From a virus: DNA of 39,099 nucleotides. The position numbers were made by a program, and so were the translations under genes. Below are positions 5,476 through 30,295 of this stretch, piece by piece; within the stretch, counting starts at the first letter, position 1; every line of letters starts with the position of its first letter. The stretch is taken from positions 1-39,099 of IMG/VR virus record IMGVR_UViG_3300029489_000008; one strand, 5' to 3'. The notes under the pieces were generated by a model. The model had not been told where the DNA came from, did no database searches, and worked only from the letters and a program-made list of their open reading frames with translations.

Positions 5476-7761
5476 GTGCGGGCGCAAACGACGCGCCTGC
5501 GCGAAACGCCGGAGACTGTGCCAGGCAGCAGCGACATTGGGAACGCCGCCATTGCCTTCTCAGATCCTCCTAACTGGGCCCGGAGCCGCCGGGCCTGGCA
5601 GAGTCTCCGGCATGTGGGAGGTGAGCACTTGGCCAGAGAGGACATGATCCGAAAGGACATGGAACTGGTCGGAACCTACAACGAGATATTCGAGCCGACG
5701 ATCAAGCAGCTGGCCAAGACGGAACGCGAACTCTCCCGCGCAGAGAAAGAGTGGAAGAAGCAGGGCGGACAACGGATCTGCACCATGATCAACAAGACCG
5801 GTGCAGAGTACACGGCCAAAAGCCCATACTGGACGGCGGTCGAAGATCTGCGCGCGACGGTGCAGTCGCTCCGCAATCAGCTCGGCCTGACACCGACGGG
5901 CCTGAATAAGGCCAGGTCGAAGCTCCAGCCGGCCGCGGCCGGAAACAGCAAGATCGAGCAGCTGCTCGCGGCGGCACACGACCACGCCGTTCAGCAGGGC
6001 GCACAGTATCAGCGCGACGTCGACGCCTTTGTCGAGTCGGTGCTCTCTGGGGAGTCCGGGCTGTGCGAAGACGTTGTCCTGTCCTGCAAACGGTATGTCG
6101 CGGATCTTGGTTCCGGCAAGTGGGATTTCCGCGCGGATCCGGCCAACGACATCATCGCAATCATCGAGCAGATGTTCTGCCACCAGCAAGGCGAATTCCT
6201 CGATGCAACGCCGCTGCGCGGTACTCCCTTCCTTCTTCTCCCCTATCACAAGTTTATTGTCTACAACCTGATGGGTTTTTATCTGCCGGATACAAAGATC
6301 CGGCGCTTCAAGGAAGCTGTGGACTTTATCCCCCGCAAAAACGTCAAGACTACCTTCGCGGCCTCTCTGGCCGGAGCTCTAGCCATGTATGAGCGTGCCT
6401 CCGGCTCTAAAGTCTATGAGGTTGGAGGCGCTTTGAAACAGGCGCTTGAAGGTTTTGACTTTCTCAAATACAACTTCAACCGCCTCGGCGTAACAGTCCG
6501 AGACGATCCAAACCAGGGGCTGCGCATCATCGACAACAACATGGAGCGGTCTATTTCCGGAGACATCGGCGACGGCATGATCTCGATCAACGCCCTTGCC
6601 GCGAACCCTGACAAGCAGGATTCCTTTAACTGCAACATCGTCATCGCTGACGAGGCCCACACCTACAAAAGCCCGCAGCAATATCAGATCCTGAAGGACG
6701 CAACCAAGGCGTACACCAACAAATTGGTCATCATCATCTCCTCCAACGGCCCCAATGCCCGCGGCTTTTTGCTCGGCCACTTGGACTATTGCCGGAAGAT
6801 CCTGCGTGGGACCGTTACAGGTAACGCAGCGGACAGCATCTTCTGCTTCCTCTGCTCCGCGCCGACGATGGAAAACGGCGACGTTGACCTGCATGATCCA
6901 GCTGTGCTGAAAGCAGCCTCGCCTGGCTGGGGCTACTCCATCCGTCCGCAGGACATGATCAACGACGCGGCTATGGCCGCTGAAAACCCGGCGCTCCGGC
7001 CGGAGTTTCTCAATAAGTCACTGAACGTCACAACGAACGCGATCAAGGCATGGTTTGACATTCAAGAGTTCCGCAAGAGCGACGAACGATACAGTTGGAG
7101 CTATCGGCAGCTTGCGAAGCTGCCCATCCGCTGGTATGGCGGCACGGACCTCTCGAAACTGCATGACCTGACTGCCGGATGTCTCTTCGGCCACTACAAA
7201 GGCGTAGACATCATCATTCCGCACGCATGGTTCCCGCGGCCGGCCGCCATCGTCAAGGCGCAGCAGGACCAAATCCCGCTGTTCGGCTGGCAGGAGGACG
7301 GCTGGCTGGACATGACCAACGACAAGGTCACAAATCACCACGATGTGGTGCAATGGTACAAAAAACTGCGCGCCGATGGGTTTAAGATACGCCGCATCGG
7401 ACACGACCGAAAATTCTGCCGCGAATACTTCGTCGAGATGCAGAAGGAACGCTTCCCCATCAAGGATCAGCCGCAGCTGTTCACACGGAAATCCGAAGGT
7501 TTCCGCTACCTGGAGGCCAGCGCCAAGAAAGGAACGCTCTACTACATGCACGCCGAACCCTATGAGTACTGCGTGCAGAATGTCGCCGGCATCGAGAAAG
7601 CCGACGACATGGTCATGTATCAAAAAATCGAGCCAAACCTACGCATCGACCTTTTTGATGCCTCGGTGTTTGCGGTTTGCGCTTATCTCGAAGATCTGAC
7701 CGCCAGCAATAAGGCGGCAGGCTGGTATGACAAGAAAGACAAGGACGGTGATGCAGATTGA
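5476..7761 (+). CDS. Terminase with a P27-type small-subunit-like region (aa 1 to about 167) in frame with a Terminase_1-type large subunit
   Basis: The N-terminal part has PPNW..AW..L and NQLGLTPTGLNKARSKL. From about aa 175 the sequence reads YQRDVDAFVESVLSGE...CKRYVADL...FRADPAN...IPRKNVKTT (Walker A-like). No stop codon and no ATG lie between the two parts. Confidence 0.8.
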   Translation: MRAQTTRLRETPETVPGSSDIGNAAIAFSDPPNWARSRRAWQSLRHVGGEHLAREDMIRKDMELVGTYNEIFEPTIKQLAKTERELSRAEKEWKKQGGQRICTMINKTGAEYTAKSPYWTAVEDLRATVQSLRNQLGLTPTGLNKARSKLQPAAAGNSKIEQLLAAAHDHAVQQGAQYQRDVDAFVESVLSGESGLCEDVVLSCKRYVADLGSGKWDFRADPANDIIAIIEQMFCHQQGEFLDATPLRGTPFLLLPYHKFIVYNLMGFYLPDTKIRRFKEAVDFIPRKNVKTTFAASLAGALAMYERASGSKVYEVGGALKQALEGFDFLKYNFNRLGVTVRDDPNQGLRIIDNNMERSISGDIGDGMISINALAANPDKQDSFNCNIVIADEAHTYKSPQQYQILKDATKAYTNKLVIIISSNGPNARGFLLGHLDYCRKILRGTVTGNAADSIFCFLCSAPTMENGDVDLHDPAVLKAASPGWGYSIRPQDMINDAAMAAENPALRPEFLNKSLNVTTNAIKAWFDIQEFRKSDERYSWSYRQLAKLPIRWYGGTDLSKLHDLTAGCLFGHYKGVDIIIPHAWFPRPAAIVKAQQDQIPLFGWQEDGWLDMTNDKVTNHHDVVQWYKKLRADGFKIRRIGHDRKFCREYFVEMQKERFPIKDQPQLFTRKSEGFRYLEASAKKGTLYYMHAEPYEYCVQNVAGIEKADDMVMYQKIEPNLRIDLFDASVFAVCAYLEDLTASNKAAGWYDKKDKDGDAD

Positions 7762-24016: not shown

Positions 24017-24316
24017 ATGAAAAAACTGTTTATCTCTCAGCCTATGAAGGGCAAGACCAACGAGGAAATTCGGAAAGAGCGTGAAGAAGCGATCATCTGC
24101 GCAAAGGAACTGACGGGCAATGAAATCGAAGTGATTGATAGCTTCTTTGAAAACGCTCCGGCTGATGCAAGGCCACTGTGGTATCTTGGCGAATCACTGA
24201 AACTGCTGTCTACGGCTGACGTTGCGTACTTTGCCCCCGGTTGGAAGAACGCCCGCGGTTGCAAGATTGAGCATATCTGCGCGGAGCAGTACGGTATCAA
24301 CATCGTGGAAGCGTAA
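24017..24316 (+). CDS. DUF4406-like (nucleoside deoxyribosyltransferase-fold) protein
   Basis: MKKLFISQPMKGKT...PLWYLGESLKLLSTADVAYFAPGWKNARGCKIEH matches the family pattern. The RBS context is AAAGGAGTTACTTATG. Confidence 0.65.
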   Translation: MKKLFISQPMKGKTNEEIRKEREEAIICAKELTGNEIEVIDSFFENAPADARPLWYLGESLKLLSTADVAYFAPGWKNARGCKIEHICAEQYGINIVEA

Positions 24317-24328
24317 AAGGAGTTACGT

Positions 24329-24514
24329 ATGAGAGAACTGAACGCCTGCCCGTTATGTGGGTATTTCCCAGTGCTGAAACAAGTCGGAGACGATAAAAAT
24401 CTCTTGGTGTACCAATGCGCACATTGTGGCTACATTGCCGCGAAAAACCATGAGGCAAAATACACAAAATCCGGCGCCATGAAAGTTTGGAACAAAGGGA
24501 CGGAAAAAGCATAA
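24329..24514 (+). CDS. Lar-family restriction-alleviation-like zinc-ribbon protein
   Basis: LNACPLCG...YQCAHCGY...AMKVWNKG fits the CPxCG...CxxCG...A..WN pattern. The RBS context is AAAGGAGTTACGTATG. Confidence 0.6.
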   Translation: MRELNACPLCGYFPVLKQVGDDKNLLVYQCAHCGYIAAKNHEAKYTKSGAMKVWNKGTEKA

Positions 24515-24531
24515 TGAAGGGAGTACATAAC

Positions 24532-24756
24532 ATGGACAAAATTATGAAACGGCTTTCGAATCTGCTGAGCGCGAAGTCGCTGGTGACGCTGCTGCTGACG
24601 GTGGTGTTTACGGTGCTGGCGCTGCGGGGTGATATCACAGGGAAAGACTTCTTGACGATCTTCCTGATGGTAATCACGTTCTATTTCGGCACGCAGTCGC
24701 AGAAGGCACAGGACGCGATGGATGCGAAGGGTGACGACAATGGCACTGAAAATTAA
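24532..24756 (+). CDS. Holin (2 TM)
   Basis: GAAGGGAG RBS upstream and two TM helices. Its end overlaps the endolysin start. Confidence 0.7.
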   Translation: MDKIMKRLSNLLSAKSLVTLLLTVVFTVLALRGDITGKDFLTIFLMVITFYFGTQSQKAQDAMDAKGDDNGTEN

Positions 24757-25420
24757 CGATACCATCCGGGCAACGAGAGTGGGCGGCAGACGTCCGCTCT
24801 CGGCCATCCGGGCCATCGTGTTCCACTACACTGCAAACACTGGCCTGCACGCGACGGCGCTCGGCAATGCCCGGTATTTTGCAAACGGCTCCGAGGGACG
24901 CACTGCTTCGGCACATTTCGTGGTAGACGAGGGCGATACCGTTTATCAGTGTGTGCCGCTGGACGTGGTCGCATGGGCCGTGGGCGACGGCAGGAGCGGC
25001 AAATTCGGCAAGGTGTACGGCAACTACAACACCGTCAGTATCGAGATGGTGAGCCATACGGACGCTTCCGGCAAGTACTACATCCCGGAGGCGACGATGC
25101 GCAACGCTGCGCGTCTGTATCAAATGCTGCTGAAGCAGCTTCCGAACGTGCAGGCCGCGATCCGGCACTATGACATTTCGATGAAACTGTGTCCGCTGCC
25201 GCTGATTGACGAAACGAAGTGGGCGGACTTTAAGAAGCTCTTGGAGGAGGTGGACGAAGTGGTCACGAAAGCAAAGATGATCGTCGACGGCAAGGAGATC
25301 GAGGTCGAACGCATTTTGAAGGACGGCACGAATTACATTAAAATTCGCGACATCGCAAAGGCGCTGGATCTTGAAGTGTCGAACAAGGGCAATGTCCCGA
25401 TCCTGAATCATAAGCAGTAA
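24740..25420 (+). CDS. Endolysin: N-acetylmuramoyl-L-alanine amidase (Amidase_2/PGRP) with a C-terminal Cu-amine-oxidase-N-like wall-binding domain
   Basis: IVFHYTAN...ASAHFVVD...AWAVGD...SIEMVSH...IRHYDISMKLCP, then VDGKEIEVERILKDGTNYIKIRDIAKALDLEV. Confidence 0.85.
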   Translation: MALKINDTIRATRVGGRRPLSAIRAIVFHYTANTGLHATALGNARYFANGSEGRTASAHFVVDEGDTVYQCVPLDVVAWAVGDGRSGKFGKVYGNYNTVSIEMVSHTDASGKYYIPEATMRNAARLYQMLLKQLPNVQAAIRHYDISMKLCPLPLIDETKWADFKKLLEEVDEVVTKAKMIVDGKEIEVERILKDGTNYIKIRDIAKALDLEVSNKGNVPILNHKQ

Positions 25421-25445: not shown

Positions 25446-25712
25446 TTGGAGGTGGTGACGATCAGCGCGAGGGTGCGGATTCCGGAAGACTTGACCGGCC
25501 TGCTGCAAGGCGAGTGGGAGCAGATCATAGCACAGGCAGGTTACAGTGAGCAGGATGCGGAGATCGTCCGGCGTTATATCATGAATAAGACACCGCAGAT
25601 TGACATAGCGGTGGAGCTGGACATGGCGCGGAGCACGATCACCCGCAGACTGCCGCAGATCTACGCACGAGCGCGGCACACGGCAGCAAAGCTGCAAATG
25701 ATAAACGAGTAA
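25446..25712 (+). CDS. Sigma-70 region-4-like HTH regulator
   Basis: EQDAEIVRRYIMNKTPQIDIAVELDMARSTITRRL. The start is uncertain (TTG 25446 or GTG 25452). Confidence 0.6.
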   Translation: MEVVTISARVRIPEDLTGLLQGEWEQIIAQAGYSEQDAEIVRRYIMNKTPQIDIAVELDMARSTITRRLPQIYARARHTAAKLQMINE

Positions 25713-25736: not shown

Positions 25737-25775
25737 CAAAAGCCCCCGGCAGGAGTGATCCTGTCGGGGGCTTTT
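25737..25775. terminator. Bidirectional intrinsic terminator between convergent genes
   Basis: aaaa-gcccccggcagg-agtgat-cctgtcgggggc-tttt forms a 12-bp stem with A and T tracts on the two sides. Confidence 0.8.
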
Positions 25776-25776
25776 C

Positions 25777-26589
25777 CTATTTTACGAGCAGAAAAACGAG
25801 AAGTGCCGCAATAAACACGACGATTGTAGGTAACCAAACAAAGAATCCTTTGACTGGTTTCTTTCTGGAAAGGTCATTCAAAATTGTGGTGCGAAGCAAT
25901 GTCAGGAGGAAACTGATTCCACCAACGGTTATGAGGTTATAGCCGATGAAACTTCGCAAAGTGGATTCATCTTCAAGAAGCTTTACGTTGGTAGAAATCA
26001 AGCTGAAGATTGCAACAAAGACAGCAAGAATCGCCAGAACGTTTGCATAAATAGATTTTTCGATTTCTTTTACATCGCCTGCCTTTTTATCAAGCTGATT
26101 GATTTGTTTTTCATAAGCCTTTTTGTATCCGCTTAGACCTGTGTAACCGCCGATTTCATCCTTAAACTTCCCACTGTAAGGTTTGTCTGCTGAGCCAGAT
26201 AGTTTTTCAAAAACGATCATGGCATAGCTGTCTTCTACATTTAGGCGGATCTCATTCTCGGAAATATTAGTAAGCCGGAAAAACACCCGTGTCTTATGCC
26301 CTGGTTGATAAATTGGAGCAGAGACAGACAATCCTTGACGGATGCGACTATTACGGTCATGCACGATAGCCGCCATATCGACGGGCATATTGATAATTTC
26401 TTCTGTTGAAACCATTACGGATTCACCAGGAGCGAGGGGCTTTGACGTGTGTTCCCCATCGTCATCATAAAAAGCCTTTGTGCGAAGATCGTACCCGATG
26501 TTTGTAATGCAGTCAGGAGAGAACGTGTCTTCTTGAATGATTCCTGAATCAGCAATCAGTTTTGAAAGATCGTGGTCAACCAAAATCAT
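25777..26589 (-). CDS. dCTP-deaminase/dUTPase-fold domain (probably non-catalytic) fused to a coiled-coil linker and three C-terminal TM helices
   Basis: GGAGGT RBS 6 nt upstream. LAPGESVMVSTEEIINMP, DRNSRIRQGL, QPGH, VFFRLTN and FEKLSG..KPYSGKF line up with Dcd motifs. TM helices are IYANVLAILAVFVAIFSLI, FIGYNLITVGGISFLLTLL and FFVWLPTIVVFIAALLVFLLV. Confidence 0.85.
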   Translation of the reverse strand: MILVDHDLSKLIADSGIIQEDTFSPDCITNIGYDLRTKAFYDDDGEHTSKPLAPGESVMVSTEEIINMPVDMAAIVHDRNSRIRQGLSVSAPIYQPGHKTRVFFRLTNISENEIRLNVEDSYAMIVFEKLSGSADKPYSGKFKDEIGGYTGLSGYKKAYEKQINQLDKKAGDVKEIEKSIYANVLAILAVFVAIFSLISTNVKLLEDESTLRSFIGYNLITVGGISFLLTLLRTTILNDLSRKKPVKGFFVWLPTIVVFIAALLVFLLVK

Positions 26590-26692: not shown

Positions 26693-26767
26693 ATGCGCCG
26701 ATGCGTCAGAAATGCTACACAAATGCGTCACTCATGCGTCCCAAGGAATCCGGAAAACTGTCATACT
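26693..26767 (+). promoter_or_regulatory. Phased ATGCG(T/C)C repeats followed by a TGtCATACT extended -10; putative regulated promoter of the cargo operon
   Basis: atgcgcc at 26693; atgcgtc at 26701, 26723 and 26734 (spacings 22 and 11 nt); catact at 26762..26767. The -35 position is a poor match. Confidence 0.4.
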
Positions 26768-26789: not shown

Positions 26790-27125
26790 ATGATGTATGA
26801 TTTCGGCCAGATGAGCGCGCAGCGCATGAGCATCACTCAGGTAAATGGCTGGGGCGGCGCGGATGCGTTCCGCATGGGGCCGAACAGCTCGATCCTGCTG
26901 CTCGATCAGGAACAGCCAGTGGTCTACATGAAAACAACGGACGGCGGCGGATTCCCCAGCGTGGCGGCGTATGAGCTTCGCCCGCTGCAACGGCCTAAAC
27001 CGCTGGATGCGAACGAGCTTGAAGAACGATTGAACAGATTGGAGGCGTTGATCCGTGAATCCGTTACTAAACAAGATGCTGACCCAAAGTCCAAGCGGAA
27101 GCCAGAGCCCGCAAATGCCGAGTAA
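26790..27125 (+). CDS. Cargo operon gene A, hypothetical (111 aa)
   Basis: GGAGGTG RBS, then ATG 26790. MMYDFGQMS...ITQVNGWGGADAFRMGPNSS...KTTDGGGFP, with a charged C-terminus. Confidence 0.7.
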   Translation: MMYDFGQMSAQRMSITQVNGWGGADAFRMGPNSSILLLDQEQPVVYMKTTDGGGFPSVAAYELRPLQRPKPLDANELEERLNRLEALIRESVTKQDADPKSKRKPEPANAE

Positions 27126-27288
27126 CCCGCTTGCAATGCTGCAAGAGTTCAACAAATTCCGCCGCTCCATCACGCCGGAGGGCGCGAAGCAACGGGTGCA
27201 GGAGCTTTTGCAGAGCGGACGGATGAGCCAGCAGCAATTCGAGCAGCTCCAGCAGCAGGCACAGGCGTTTGCTCAATTTCTGAAATAA
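27055..27288 (+). CDS. Cargo operon gene B, small Gln-rich protein
   Basis: GTG 27055 lies 9 nt after GGAGG and overlaps gene A by 71 nt. Internal ATGs at 27076, 27115 and 27136 are alternative starts. Confidence 0.5.
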   Translation: MNPLLNKMLTQSPSGSQSPQMPSNPLAMLQEFNKFRRSITPEGAKQRVQELLQSGRMSQQQFEQLQQQAQAFAQFLK

Positions 27289-27332
27289 GCCGGGTGCGCA
27301 ACGGTTTATGATAAAAAATTACGAAGGGAGAT

Positions 27333-27941
27333 ATGACAATGATGGAAAACATGAGTCCTGCCGACATCAAGGCCGTTACTGGCTCTGATGGTGACGGCTG
27401 GGGTGGCGGCGCGTGGTGGATCATCATCCTGTTCCTGTTCGTCTTCATGGGCGGCGGCTGGGGCATGAACCGCCAGAGCGACTTCGGCCAGTACGCCACG
27501 GCAGCCAGCCAGCAAGAGATCCTGTTCGGGCAGCAGTTCGGGCAGATCAACGACCGGCTCACGAACATCGGCAACGGCATTTGTAACCTCGGCTATGATG
27601 TACAGGGCAACATCGGCCAGCTCGGCAAGGAGGTCGCCCTTGCGCAGAACGGCACCAACATGACCGTGATGCAGACCGGCAATGACATCCAGCGTCAGCT
27701 TGCGGAGTGCTGCTGCACAACGCAGCGAGCCATCGACGGCGTGAACGCGAACATTGACGCCAAGTTCGCAGCCCTCGAAAAAGGCCGTCTGGAAGAGCGC
27801 ATCTCGCAGCTGGAGCAGGCAAACAACCAGCTCTATATCAAGGAACAGCTCAACGGCGTTGTGCGGTATCCGACCGGCTACTCCTACAACGCGGGGCCGT
27901 CTCCGTTCTGCAACGGCAACAGCGGCTGCGGCTGCATGTGA
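27333..27941 (+). CDS. Cargo operon gene C: Gly/Trp-flanked TM anchor, coiled coil and Cys clusters
   Basis: GWGGGAWWIIILFLFVFMGGGWG, AECCCTTQ, and C-terminal FCNGNSGCGCM. ATGs at 27333, 27339 and 27342 are all possible starts after AAGGGAG. Confidence 0.75.
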   Translation: MTMMENMSPADIKAVTGSDGDGWGGGAWWIIILFLFVFMGGGWGMNRQSDFGQYATAASQQEILFGQQFGQINDRLTNIGNGICNLGYDVQGNIGQLGKEVALAQNGTNMTVMQTGNDIQRQLAECCCTTQRAIDGVNANIDAKFAALEKGRLEERISQLEQANNQLYIKEQLNGVVRYPTGYSYNAGPSPFCNGNSGCGCM

Positions 27942-28011
27942 TTCCGGCTTGACCGTGAGAAATCGGAGGGCGGGAAACCGCCCTCTTGGACTATGAAAAG
28001 GAGAAATGATT

Positions 28012-28398
28012 ATGGCTTGTAAACCGATCTGCAAACTCTGCCCGCATCTTGTGATTTCCACCGCTGTGACATACGCGAGCGGTGTACTGACGGTCAACCT
28101 CCCGGCGGGAAGCTATAACAACGGCGAGAAATACTGCATCGTGATCGCACAGAATATCCCGACAACGGCCATCATCGGGGCGCCGGTCGTCGTGACTATC
28201 GGCACTGGAACCGTGCAATATCCGCTGACGCGCTGCAACTGCAAGCAGCTGACGGCCTGCGGCCTGCGGACACGGACACGGTATTCCGCTGTGGTGGAGA
28301 CCACGCCAACAGACGGTGTGTTCCGCCTGCTGGGGAAGCCGTGCTGCACGCCGAACAACGATCTGGACAGCATCAACGGCACGTCGCCGACGGCGTAG
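28012..28398 (+). CDS. Cargo operon gene D: Cys-rich beta-type protein (9 Cys in 128 aa)
   Basis: AAGGAG lies 8 nt upstream of ATG 28012. MACKPICKLCPHLVIS...RCNCKQLTACG...GKPCCTPNN. Confidence 0.75.
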   Translation: MACKPICKLCPHLVISTAVTYASGVLTVNLPAGSYNNGEKYCIVIAQNIPTTAIIGAPVVVTIGTGTVQYPLTRCNCKQLTACGLRTRTRYSAVVETTPTDGVFRLLGKPCCTPNNDLDSINGTSPTA

Positions 28399-28408
28399 GA
28401 GGCGGACA

Positions 28409-28873
28409 ATGGGACTGCAAAGCTATCGGCAGAAGCTCCATGACGCGCTCCACGAGATGGAGCACTGCCCGGTAAACATGAACACAGTGGCACAGGCAAC
28501 GGCGCTTGCTGAGCTGTGCTGCAAGCTGCGAGAGATCGACGGACACGAAACTTCCAAGGAATTCTCGGCAACTGACGCCAAGCGCTGGACTGCAAAGATG
28601 GAAAATGAGGACGGCACGACCGGCGCGCACTGGACAATGGAGCAGACGGACGCCGTGGCCAATATCACAGGCGTCAATGTGAAGCCTTACACCTGGTGGG
28701 CGGCAATGAACATGATGTACTCGGACTATTACGGCGTAGCTGCCAAGTACGGCCTAGACCGGCCGGAATTCTATGCCGACCTCGCCAAAGCGTTCCTCAT
28801 GGATAAGGACGCCGGAGGAGCGGAGGAGAAGATAGCCGGGTATTATCATGGGATTGTGCTGAGAGAAAAATGA
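28409..28873 (+). CDS. Cargo operon gene E, hypothetical (154 aa)
   Basis: GGAGGCGG RBS, then ATG 28409. ...MENEDGTTGAHWTMEQT...AMNMMYSDYYGVAAKYG...FYADLAKAFLMDKDA. Confidence 0.75.
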   Translation: MGLQSYRQKLHDALHEMEHCPVNMNTVAQATALAELCCKLREIDGHETSKEFSATDAKRWTAKMENEDGTTGAHWTMEQTDAVANITGVNVKPYTWWAAMNMMYSDYYGVAAKYGLDRPEFYADLAKAFLMDKDAGGAEEKIAGYYHGIVLREK

Positions 28874-28959: not shown

Positions 28960-29022
28960 CCCCTGCTAAGGGAGTAGAGGTGTAAAAAGCCTGCGAGAGT
29001 TCGAATCTCTCCTTCCGCGCCA
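28960..29022 (+). other. attP core: 3' portion of a class II tRNA-Ser(GCU), from the anticodon loop to CCA
   Basis: Anticodon loop CTGCTAA, 3' anticodon stem GGGAG, a long variable arm, T arm GAGAG-TTCGAAT-CTCTC, 3' acceptor CTTCCGC, discriminator G and CCA. No matching 5' acceptor or D arm lies upstream. Confidence 0.75.
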
Positions 29023-29023
29023 A

Positions 29024-29068
29024 AGTACCCAGAAACAGCGTAAAAACGTTGTTTCTGGGTACTTTTTT
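29024..29068 (+). terminator. Strong intrinsic terminator immediately after the tRNA-derived segment
   Basis: agtacccagaaac...gtttctgggtact forms a perfect 13-bp stem followed by TTTTTT. Confidence 0.8.
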
Positions 29069-29119: not shown

Positions 29120-30295
29120 CTAATCGTGCTCTGAGGCATCAACACTTGCCCCGTGTGTAACATTATGTGCAACATCATTTTTCCCTGTACTTGGTGCGCC
29201 GGGCATTTGATTCACGGCAGCGGCCATGCTGGACATATCCGGGTGGATATAGCGCTGCGTCGTGGTATACTTGCTGTGCCGCATGATCTCCTGAATCACG
29301 GACGGTGCGATATTTTGCAGTGCCAGCGCCGTGGCCGTCGTGTGGCGGCAGGAATACGGGACAAGCCGCCGCACCCCCGCTTGCTCAAGGGCCTCATAAT
29401 AGCGCGTGTAAAATGTCTGCTCCATCATAGGACAAAAATTCCCGACGCGAGATTTATTCTCCTCGCAGAGCTGCCGGATGACCGGCGCGAGAAAGTCCGG
29501 AAATACCATGGGTGTCTCTTTGCGCTTTTTTGTTTTGATGCCGCTTTTGACGATCTCGTTGCGTTCAAAGTCGATGCAGGCTTTTTTGAGCCCGCGCAGC
29601 TCCCCGGGCATCATGCCTGTGTAGATCATGGTGAGGATATAGCCGACAAAGTGATTTGTGAGATACGCCTCCCATAGTTTTTTGACCTCGTCGTCTGTAA
29701 ACGGCTCCGGCTGGGTCTCGATCAGCTCCGGGAGCGTGATGTATTTTGAGAGGTTGACCGTCACAGCTTTCTCAGCCAGAGCCAGATTAAAGCAATGCGA
29801 GAGCAGCGTCTTCATGTCCTTCCGCGTATAGTATGTGCTGGCCTCGCGGTCAACGACTTCCTGGATCTGATGGATGGTCAGGTTGTCCATCTCAATATCT
29901 GCCAGGGAGGACAGGCGCTCATAGGCTTTTCGCATGGCGGCCTGTTTGTCGCGGGACAGTTTTTTGTATTTGCCTGCCTTGTAAGTCACCCAGTATTCCC
30001 GCAGCGTGGGTGCGGCCGGCGTTGGCTTCGGTGGGTCTGACGCATAAGCGAGGGCGGCCCGTTTGGTCTTGAAGCCGCCCTTCGTCTTTACGGTCCGCCG
30101 CAGTTTTCCGTCCTCATCCAGATAGGAGCCTGTGCTCCACTTGGCTGTCCATGTGGCGCCGCGCTTGTAGGCGGTGCCCTGTCCATTGCCGCGAGAGCGT
30201 ATCCCGCCGCGCATGGCCGCGGTCTCCTGCTTCGCGCCGCACTGGGCGCAGAATGGGCCGTCCGGAACGGCCTGCTTGCATTTGCGGCAGATCAT
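29120..30295 (-). CDS. int: Tyrosine integrase with an N-terminal zinc ribbon
   Basis: MICRKCKQAVPDGPFCAQCG at the N-terminus. Catalytic region ...YSCRHTTATALA...IMRHSKYTTTQRYIH. It lies adjacent to attP. Confidence 0.9.
   Translation of the reverse strand: MICRKCKQAVPDGPFCAQCGAKQETAAMRGGIRSRGNGQGTAYKRGATWTAKWSTGSYLDEDGKLRRTVKTKGGFKTKRAALAYASDPPKPTPAAPTLREYWVTYKAGKYKKLSRDKQAAMRKAYERLSSLADIEMDNLTIHQIQEVVDREASTYYTRKDMKTLLSHCFNLALAEKAVTVNLSKYITLPELIETQPEPFTDDEVKKLWEAYLTNHFVGYILTMIYTGMMPGELRGLKKACIDFERNEIVKSGIKTKKRKETPMVFPDFLAPVIRQLCEENKSRVGNFCPMMEQTFYTRYYEALEQAGVRRLVPYSCRHTTATALALQNIAPSVIQEIMRHSKYTTTQRYIHPDMSSMAAAVNQMPGAPSTGKNDVAHNVTHGASVDASEHD
29154..29175 (+). repeat. Two direct TGTG(T/C)AACAT repeats 12 bp apart inside the 3' end of int; candidate right-arm integrase sites
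   Basis: tgtgtaacat at 29154 and tgtgcaacat at 29166. Orientation and spacing match the left-arm pair. Confidence 0.4.

Follow-up and report, generated by a model that had tools for sequence, protein, structure and literature searches.

What is the function of five small genes, packed between the lysis genes and the attachment site of a phage, whose products carry no characterised domain? The question is raised by the IMG/VR virus record IMGVR_UViG_3300029489_000008, whose positions 1 to 39,099 (39,099 nucleotides, nt; hereafter the window) correspond to a temperate phage genome with the gene order structural genes, holin, endolysin, the block of five genes, attachment site (attP) and integrase. 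An initial annotation of this sequence regarded the block (genes A to E, positions 26,790 to 28,873) as an operon of unrecognised proteins, either lysogenic-conversion cargo that remodels the envelope or the spore surface, or a membrane-anchored exclusion complex. The analysis presented here indicates that the block is part of a mobile, co-conserved cassette with its own regulator, which comprises a small helix-turn-helix (HTH) gene, a terminator, operator-like boxes, a predicted promoter without a -35 element and the genes A-B-C-D-(E). This cassette probably functions late in the lytic cycle and is less likely to confer a spore-surface or lysogenic-conversion trait.

Conservation of the gene block

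The five genes, with their lengths in amino acids (aa) and their Shine-Dalgarno (SD) sequences, are as follows:

26790-27125, plus strand: gene A, 111 aa, phrog_21718; SD GGAGGTG at 26781-87
27055-27288, plus strand: gene B, 77 aa, GTG start, phrog_22984; SD GGAGG at 27041-45
27339-27941, plus strand: gene C, 200 aa (202 aa if the start is 27333); SD AAGGGAG at 27322-28
28012-28398, plus strand: gene D, 128 aa with 9 Cys and an N-terminal CX3CX2C motif (C3-x3-C7-x2-C10); SD AAAGGAG at 27997-28003
28409-28873, plus strand: gene E, 154 aa, a helical N-terminal part and a DUF7841 domain; SD AGGAGG at 28397-402

The list of open reading frames (ORFs) confirms five tightly packed ORFs on the plus strand, each preceded by one SD sequence, as well as the overlap of 71 nt between A and B. 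In the case of C, a start at 27339 is more likely than the one initially annotated at 27333, because homologues with 100% identity are 200 aa long. A to E are real genes and not chance ORFs, since D and C have thousands of homologues and the gene order is conserved; at E<=1e-3, 2701 clusters of 90% identity were found for D and 4958 for C, all of them unnamed. No enzyme, toxin or defence domain was detected in A to E by Pfam, NCBIfam and PADLOC scans, in agreement with the initial annotation. The description of the proteins as unrecognised holds insofar as none of the five has a characterised domain, but not for E, which belongs to Pfam DUF7841. For A to D, scans of Pfam, NCBIfam, PADLOC and PHROGs gave nothing informative (the PHROGs to which A, B and C belong have no known function), whereas PADLOC-DB v2, without any match for A, B, D and E, returned noise-level coiled-coil matches of C to BstA and ZorA (E 0.005-0.02). 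Profile searches against PDB sequences found no match for A, D and E.

For the comparison of gene orders, loci from genomes (80) and from viruses (160) were collected together with a number of annotated phage records, and their ORFs were searched with iterated hidden Markov models (HMMs), members being counted in distinct loci with enough flank only. The genes co-occur as a block in hundreds of phage and prophage loci, in the recurrent order small HTH gene, A, B, C, D and, in some loci, E. A was found in 122 of 128 loci, C in 126/128 and D in 123/128, with the HTH gene upstream of A in 111/128 and E in 85 of the 118 loci assessed for it. B was missed by the first HMM, and a Met/Gln-rich ORF of 70-85 aa occupies the gap between A and C in nearly all loci. 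At least 54 of 118 loci have a tyrosine integrase gene on the opposite strand no more than 3 kb away. The operon initially proposed thus stands as a co-conserved plus-strand accessory unit between lysis genes and attP/integrase, although with the HTH gene as a sixth, upstream member. By far the most conserved member is D, with a median pairwise identity of 71% over 71 loci; the medians of E, C, A and the HTH protein are 48%, 41%, 36% and 21%, respectively.

The carriers of the cassette are phages and prophages of gut and rumen Clostridia (Oscillospiraceae, Lachnospiraceae and Clostridium). Where genome records name a host, it is in most cases a member of the Oscillospiraceae or Lachnospiraceae, and the cultured host strains include Anaerotruncus colihominis, Flintibacter muris, Agathobaculum desmolans and Acutalibacter. 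In A. colihominis DSM 17241, the prophage is located at ~1.672-1.685 Mb of NZ_CP102255. Both myovirus-type and siphovirus-type tail modules neighbour the cassette, and its homologues in BFVD carry Myo-, Podo- and Siphoviridae labels. The A-B-C-D genes of Dulem virus 36 are separated by 10 nt from a preceding receptor-binding-protein gene, and neither an HTH gene nor E is present. In bajarodcaudo virus 2, HMMs confirm the HTH gene, A, C and D in a stretch bordered by the portal and major-capsid genes, where B- and E-like ORFs are assigned by position, and a YadA-like fibre gene adjoins the module. The AT-rich phage L005, with a PolIII-alpha gene, carries the cassette after its tail genes. The cassette is also present in the cultured Clostridium perfringens phages XP41-N3, CPD1, CPQ4, HMD-PC1, PMQ04 and 17DYC, for which a literature search for virion proteomics gave nothing usable, and in Butyrivibrio virus Ceridwen. 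The host of Ceridwen, Butyrivibrio fibrisolvens, is not known to form spores. Only a lytic cycle has been observed for this phage (PMC7372960). With a promoter-like element of its own (the promoter is predicted) and terminators, cargo that is swapped among siblings and varied insertion contexts, the cassette shows the traits that define a moron.

Additional small genes accompany the cassette in some loci. A sub-lineage that includes Ceridwen has an extra 125-aa gene ('Z') directly upstream of A (L013, L019, L034-36, L044, L050, L059, L068, L079, L082, L118, L121 and others; L170 4623-5000), with the motifs GDC..RA and GHVV.V.DG.YYD.WDSG reminiscent of a papain-like Cys/His pair; a papain/C39-like peptidase was rejected for want of a Pfam match. 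In XP41-N3 and Dulem virus 36, a small protein of 66-77 aa is encoded 3′ of D (L169 7085-7285, L087 7351-7584), whose layout, a single weakly hydrophobic segment near the N-terminus plus a charged coiled coil, is BhlA/UviB-like, but Pfam supported neither a BhlA/UviB holin-like nor a ferritin-like assignment. Finally, in L009-L011, L014, L017, L026, L027 and L049 a further ORF of ~45-60 aa (e.g. MTPVERLIAAGIRPDCARETIMWFRAQGDDYGLEKYL…) separates the HTH gene from A; it has no Pfam match, and a conserved AAGGACGTGT motif lies ahead of it.

A regulatory unit with exchangeable cargo

The region upstream of A in the window contains these elements:

25446-25712, plus strand: small HTH gene, 88 aa, sigma-70 region 4 / LuxR-GerE-like, apparently the last gene of the lysis/late transcript
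25738-25775, plus strand: intrinsic terminator hairpin (17-bp stem and T-run), predicted to close the late/HTH transcript
25777-26589, minus strand: dCTP-deaminase-like gene fused to a transmembrane region, between the HTH gene and A
26701-26741, plus strand: four operator-like boxes with an 11-nt phase, ATGCGTCA, ATGCTACA, ATGCGTCA and ATGCGTCC
26759-26767, plus strand: extended -10-like element TGT-CATACT, without -35, the putative promoter of A to E

The HTH gene starts 25 nt past the stop codon of the endolysin gene, and the median gap between the HTH gene and the preceding gene (often that of the endolysin) is 16 nt across loci, which argues that the HTH gene belongs to the late/lysis transcript. 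Such a tight coupling to the endolysin gene would in turn imply late lytic expression of the cassette. In Pfam, the window protein gives just a weak match to HTH_28 (E 0.019), its L001 counterpart scores 24.8 with GerE (gathering score 23.5) and remains just short of Sigma70_r4_2, and the iterated profile of the family also recruits genuine bacterial sigma-70 proteins; the GerE and sigma-70 region 4 folds are indistinguishable at this level. The gene is presumed to encode a dedicated activator of the cassette.

Sequence comparisons among relatives provide good evidence that HTH gene, boxes and promoter form one regulatory unit with exchangeable cargo, because the HTH gene, the boxes and the CATACT element are common to the window, L089 and L173, and yet the cargo of L173 differs. 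In L089, the closest relative (D 97% identical), the same boxes come straight after the terminator. The sibling L173 combines a near-identical HTH gene, with the boxes and CATACT element unchanged, with different genes; the same terminator hairpin is found 3′ of the HTH gene in both L089 and L173. Many lineages carry three or four direct repeats with an 11-nt phase upstream of A, and phased triple repeats occur in 21 of 125 upstream regions versus 2.5% of random windows and 0.8% of shuffles (a 7- to 20-fold enrichment). The repeat sequence is lineage-specific (TGATAG, ATGATAAA, TGACGTAAAA or TGATACGAAAA; ATGCGTCA in the window), and the location of the boxes, at ~-30 to -55, suggests activation. 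An element TG(n)-nAnAAT with a leader of the 'TTAGGCAGAAA'/'AATCAGAAA' type recurs upstream of A in many loci, in ~30 of which the extended -10 directly follows the T-run of the terminator. A promoter of the sigma-E/K type was considered and rejected, since most of the -10 elements are of the TGn-nAnAAT type (sigma-A extended -10).

The alternative cargo was seen behind a near-identical holin and HTH gene and the same boxes in L173, L181, L199 and L243 (L173 5013-5804; ~5950-7315 in the four loci), and consists of a protein C' (165-283 aa), a 112-aa protein and a DUF7841 protein, in this order. C' starts with a Gly-rich hydrophobic stretch and has a coiled coil and Cys residues at its C-terminal end; homology between C' and C was not detectable.

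In the window, the HTH terminator and the boxes are separated by the dCTP-deaminase-like gene, which appears to be an insertion of ~0.9 kb, since L089 has its boxes straight after the terminator; the hairpin at 25738-25775 is now also located at the 3′ end of this inserted minus-strand gene. Its 270-aa product has an N-terminal dCTP-deaminase/dUTPase-like domain (Pfam DCD, E 1.3e-12; 65 bits with TIGR02274, under the cut-off) and a multi-transmembrane region at the C-terminus, with no PADLOC match, and it may represent a nucleotide-depleting defence moron. L089 lacks the gene, L036, L042 and L072 have homologues 3′ of D, and L173 carries a DUF3800 gene in its place.

The cassette proteins

C and D are indeed Cys-rich, as first noticed: D has 9 Cys in 128 aa, and C has a CCC cluster and a C-terminal GCGC. 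The succession of a transmembrane segment and a coiled coil in C was also borne out. From N- to C-terminus, C shows an acidic tail, a hydrophobic anchor, a Gly/aromatic-rich linker, a coiled coil of heptad repeats with an invariant CCC, a Pro-rich stretch and a Cys-rich end (…GCGCM). Among the five proteins, a strongly hydrophobic segment is present in C alone; the other four also lack export signals, and signal peptides are absent from all five. Across the C family (median 261 aa, median 11 Cys), the hydrophobic core spans approximately residues 31-44, a segment of transmembrane grade is kept in all homologues, and the N-terminal flank is acidic (2.05 Asp/Glu versus 0.53 Lys/Arg). No Pfam match was found for C. 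The proposed likeness to tiny YjcZ-type sporulation proteins was not supported, as neither NCBIfam (TIGR01732) nor Pfam gave a match and the C family comprises proteins of 200-300 aa with a coiled coil instead of peptides of ~30-50 aa that are little more than a Gly-flanked transmembrane segment. A profile of C retrieved from PDB sequences, weakly, the heptad repeat 1 (HR1) of coronavirus S2 (E 0.0013) and influenza HA2 from the fusion peptide onwards (E 0.07-0.6). These matches are probably compositional, as the regions involved are Gly-rich or made of N/Q heptads.

In the case of D, an exhaustive profile search yielded 352 clusters at 50% identity, nearly all of them stand-alone proteins of 120-140 aa. 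An AlphaFold2 model built with 28 close homologues was discarded (predicted local distance difference test, pLDDT, 47); with a divergent branch added to the alignment, pLDDT reached 81.5 and the predicted template modelling (TM) score, pTM, 0.71. A Foldseek search of BFVD with this model returned D homologues first and then many tail-fibre proteins (E 1e-5 to 1e-3), including collagen-repeat and T7-fibre-type proteins, with a probability of 1.0 but TM scores normalised to the query (TMq) of only ~0.45-0.55. At rank 27, a 'DUF7841 domain-containing protein' of a crAss-like virus shows a D-like domain fused to DUF7841. In the PDB no match was significant, and the best one was the Pa193 tail fibre gp47 (E 0.03, TMq 0.45), whose visible part consists of three trimeric beta 'beads'. 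D, correctly described from the outset as beta-type, is thus modelled as a beta-domain resembling the beads or tips of tail fibres.

The D slot is not always occupied by D: in L001-L004, L204-type loci and Ceridwen it contains unrelated proteins of 130-150 aa, and those of the L001 and L204 types independently give sub-threshold BclA_C/C1q matches (E 3e-4, 21 bits versus a cut-off of 38). A C1q-like nature of D itself was rejected, since hhalign gave a probability of 0.2% against a BclA_C-like D-slot protein and the modelled fold matches fibre beads or oligonucleotide-binding (OB)-like folds rather than a jelly roll. Likewise, D was rejected as an Ena/F-ENA subunit for lack of any DUF3992 or DUF4183 signal, the latter being the domain that defines F-ENA (PMC12357932). 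D and 34 diverse homologues gave no Pfam match at E<=1 to Ena DUF3992, F-ENA DUF4183, BclA_C or CotY/ExsY-type families.

The remaining proteins are small. In A, a conserved core of ~50 aa is accompanied by a short coiled coil and a charged tail, and there is no Pfam or PDB match; most of its homologues start with a P/Q/Y-rich disordered region that is absent from the window copy. B is a Gln/Met-rich helical protein. E scores 93.2 bits with Pfam DUF7841 (E 1.6e-26, cut-off 25.2), a family without mention in the literature searched and uncharacterised. A long-form homologue of E reaches 97 bits, and such long forms have an R/D/Y/G/M-rich disordered N-terminus ahead of DUF7841. In sibling phages, an E-type partner is also found beside different cargo. 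Between C and D there is one more element:

27966-27985, plus strand: GC-rich hairpin GAGGGCGG-GAAA-CCGCCCTC, without T-run

This hairpin may act in the processing, stability or attenuation of the mRNA and thereby set the C:D ratio.

A proposed late complex at the host envelope

How could these pieces work together? Our tentative preference, with clearly less than even confidence, goes to a stalk-and-knob complex anchored in the membrane, which would be produced very late under the control of the activator and would act on the host envelope at about the time of lysis or release. The process would start with the HTH protein, produced from the late (lysis) transcript, which would activate the cassette, so that A to E would be the last products of the lytic cycle. 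C would be inserted in the cytoplasmic membrane, the acidic N-tail facing outwards and the coiled-coil stalk inwards, and D, presumably as a trimer, would cap the Cys-rich end of this stalk through a putative metal-thiolate or disulfide join between the CX3CX2C of D and the GCGC tail of C. A, B and E, disordered or Met/Gln-rich proteins without export signals, could be assembly or adaptor factors. Finally, the stalk-and-knob would operate at the inner face of the host envelope, in lysis, release or exclusion. The high conservation of D points to a target common to many hosts or phages.

Several considerations weigh against such a complex. Its late timing is read from the gene arrangement alone, and the topology of C from flanking charges, which are a weak signal. 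In the ~30 loci where the extended -10 comes right after the terminator there is no space for direct-repeat boxes, and these boxless promoters could be constitutive and therefore active in lysogens. Moreover, a layout of promoter and terminator is the classical signature of a moron, and slots adjacent to attP are typical of lysogenic-conversion or defence genes. Near-identical C proteins pair with unrelated D-slot proteins (window versus L001), some D-slot proteins lack the N-terminal Cys, and the matches of D to fibre proteins do not exceed TM scores of ~0.45-0.55. Monoderm hosts are also not known to need an extra lysis step.

Alternative explanations

Pure lysogenic conversion, as initially proposed, becomes less likely because the HTH gene is closely linked to that of the endolysin and because the cassette occurs in phages observed only as lytic (Ceridwen and the C. 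perfringens phages). It is also weakened by the places that the cassette occupies in Dulem virus 36, where it comes after a receptor-binding-protein gene, and in bajarodcaudo virus 2, where it is flanked by portal and capsid genes. A related explanation, unlikely but to be taken seriously, is a moron expressed by the prophage from its own promoter, with a C-anchored membrane complex that would exclude superinfecting phages or constitute a novel defence, and with the HTH protein as a local regulator. The predicted promoter and the terminator fit this idea, as does the location between lysis genes and attP/integrase, with an integrase within 3 kb in at least 54 of the 118 loci. The same hotspot gathers defence-like inserts (the DCD-like gene in the window, the DUF3800 gene in L173), cargoes are swapped behind one regulator as in defence islands, and C weakly matches the coiled-coil tail of ZorA. 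However, the PADLOC matches are at noise level and no enzymatic effector is present, the HTH gene is coupled to the endolysin gene, boxes at ~-30 to -55 occupy an activator-type position, and the module occurs in lytic-only phages and within late structural operons.

An accessory fibre of the virion seems rather improbable. C would form its trimeric shaft, D its tip, and A, B and E would be adaptors or chaperones of a structure that decorates the particle and binds a conserved gut ligand, like the Stf/Tfa side fibres of lambda or head and neck fibres. The modelled fold of D resembles tail-fibre beads and tips, and the alternative D-slot proteins show weak, sub-threshold likeness to BclA_C/C1q, a fold that forms the fibre tip in BclA. 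The module adjoins a receptor-binding-protein gene in Dulem virus 36 and a YadA-like fibre gene in the head module of bajarodcaudo virus 2, and all five proteins, devoid of signal peptides, would be made late. On the other hand, a virion fibre does not explain why the transmembrane-grade segment of C is conserved in all homologues, nor why a regulator and terminator travel with genes whose insertion site varies. In addition, sipho-, myo- and podo-type genomes with the cassette offer no common fibre docking site, and D is far more conserved than the usual receptor-binding tips.

It is very unlikely that the cassette encodes a factor freed by lysis, either a bacteriocin-like, membrane-active C with D as targeting knob or an adhesive or protective matrix for the progeny, in parallel to the sigma-factor-driven, holin-released toxins and bacteriocins of clostridia. 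The activator gene adjoins the lysis genes, the cargo lacks signal peptides, the Gly-rich hydrophobic N-termini of C and C' are like those of GxxxG-rich membrane-active peptides, and a small protein with transmembrane segment and coiled coil follows D in XP41-N3 and Dulem virus 36. All these resemblances, however, are architectural only: there is no immunity gene, the small post-D proteins have no Pfam BhlA/UviB match, and killing of potential hosts is of no obvious benefit for a phage.

Comparably low is the probability that C and D constitute a two-part membrane-remodelling machine in monoderms, analogous to spanins or class I fusion proteins, in which a fusogen-like C, capped by the fibre-knob D through a Cys/metal link, would be turned on shortly before lysis by a private activator. 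If true, this would imply a step such as membrane fragmentation, vesiculation or progeny release where no such step is known. Like spanins (Rz/Rz1) and class I fusion proteins, C combines an N-terminal hydrophobic segment, heptad coiled coils and conserved Cys; like spanins, it is encoded near the lysis genes and together with a small Cys-rich partner, and a type II architecture fits loosely. In contrast to Rz/Rz1, the hosts of the cassette are monoderm, D has no lipobox, signal peptide or hydrophobic leader, and there is no embedded or overlapped gene pair, so that C and D do not qualify as a two-component spanin. With regard to class I viral fusion proteins, the matches of C are weak and probably compositional, and no homology is demonstrable.

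The least probable explanation is a remodelling of the spore surface, by which mother-cell proteins under a GerE-like regulator would assemble on the forespore as a Cys-cross-linked, knob-tipped layer: the Cys-rich proteins without export signals, the P/Q/Y-rich A, the L001 HTH protein that passes the GerE threshold, the weak BclA_C matches of alternative D-slot proteins and the many hosts from families that include spore-formers would agree with it, but D matches none of the DUF3992, DUF4183, CotY/ExsY-type or BclA_C families (no spore-appendage or coat family at all), the promoter is in most loci of the sigma-A extended -10 type and not sigma-E/K-like, GerE and sigma-70 region 4 folds are not separable at this level, the HTH gene is coupled to the endolysin gene, and the module is found in the lytic Ceridwen, whose host is not known to sporulate.

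Flanking features of the window

The cassette is flanked in the window by the following features:

24487-24756: holin gene
24722-25420: Amidase_2 endolysin gene
28995-29022, plus strand: tRNA-3′-end-like attP core (T-arm, acceptor strand and CCA), with the T-arm GAGAG-TTCGAAT-CTCTC followed by CTTCCGCG-CCA
29022-29065, plus strand: strong terminator with a 20-bp stem, closing the cassette transcript ~150 nt past E
29120-30295, minus strand: tyrosine integrase gene

The block was initially said to end at the attP terminator; this terminator was confirmed, but it is placed 150 nt beyond E, 3′ of the attP core. ARAGORN and Rfam found no complete tRNA at attP, and the phage presumably integrates into a tRNA gene, restoring the 3′ end of the tRNA. 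Between the tail genes and the holin gene there are two small ORFs, 24017-24316 (99 aa) and 24329-24514 (61 aa), the second with a zinc-ribbon-like CxxC…CxxC.

Relation to known systems and significance

The mom gene of phage Mu is a late accessory gene under the control of the Mu C protein, the late promoter of TP901-1 depends on the Alt activator and upstream direct repeats, and stf/tfa of lambda are located at the end of the late region, next to attP. Like morons and other activator-driven late genes, the cassette is an autonomous unit of promoter, genes and terminator, found at variable points among late genes and exchanged across phage morphotypes, and it shares with late accessory genes a location at the distal late end near attP/integrase. 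The small HTH gene, the phased repeats and a promoter without -35 are also reminiscent of activator-driven late promoters. Unlike in Mu mom, TP901-1 or lambda stf, however, the regulator travels with the cargo, which consists of five proteins from families without assigned function rather than of one enzyme or fibre gene as in Mu mom and lambda stf.

A second comparison is offered by knob-tipped trimeric fibres such as Pa193 gp47 and BclA, since the D model matches bead or tip domains, C has a long coiled-coil stalk, and the alternative D-slot proteins weakly match, below the gathering score, the C1q-like BclA_C head of BclA. In the cassette, by contrast, stalk and knob would be separate polypeptides and the base of the stalk carries a membrane-type anchor, whereas D is highly conserved instead of hypervariable, with TM scores of ~0.5 and no sequence similarity to such fibres. 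Apart from its moron-like layout, the cassette could not be assigned to any of the systems compared, and among its products E alone falls in a named family (DUF7841).

With thousands of protein clusters (90% identity) and over 550 contigs in IMG/VR, this cassette is among the commoner unannotated gene sets of the phages of gut Clostridia, and its five cargo families are all without assigned function. It provides, in addition, a compact regulatory unit (HTH gene, 11-bp-phased boxes and a promoter lacking -35) that is reused for different cargoes. D would represent a new small Cys-rich, fibre-like domain, confidently modelled and unusually conserved across hosts. Plaque-forming phages of C. perfringens and Butyrivibrio, as well as cultured lysogens such as Anaerotruncus colihominis DSM 17241, make direct testing of this set of genes feasible.

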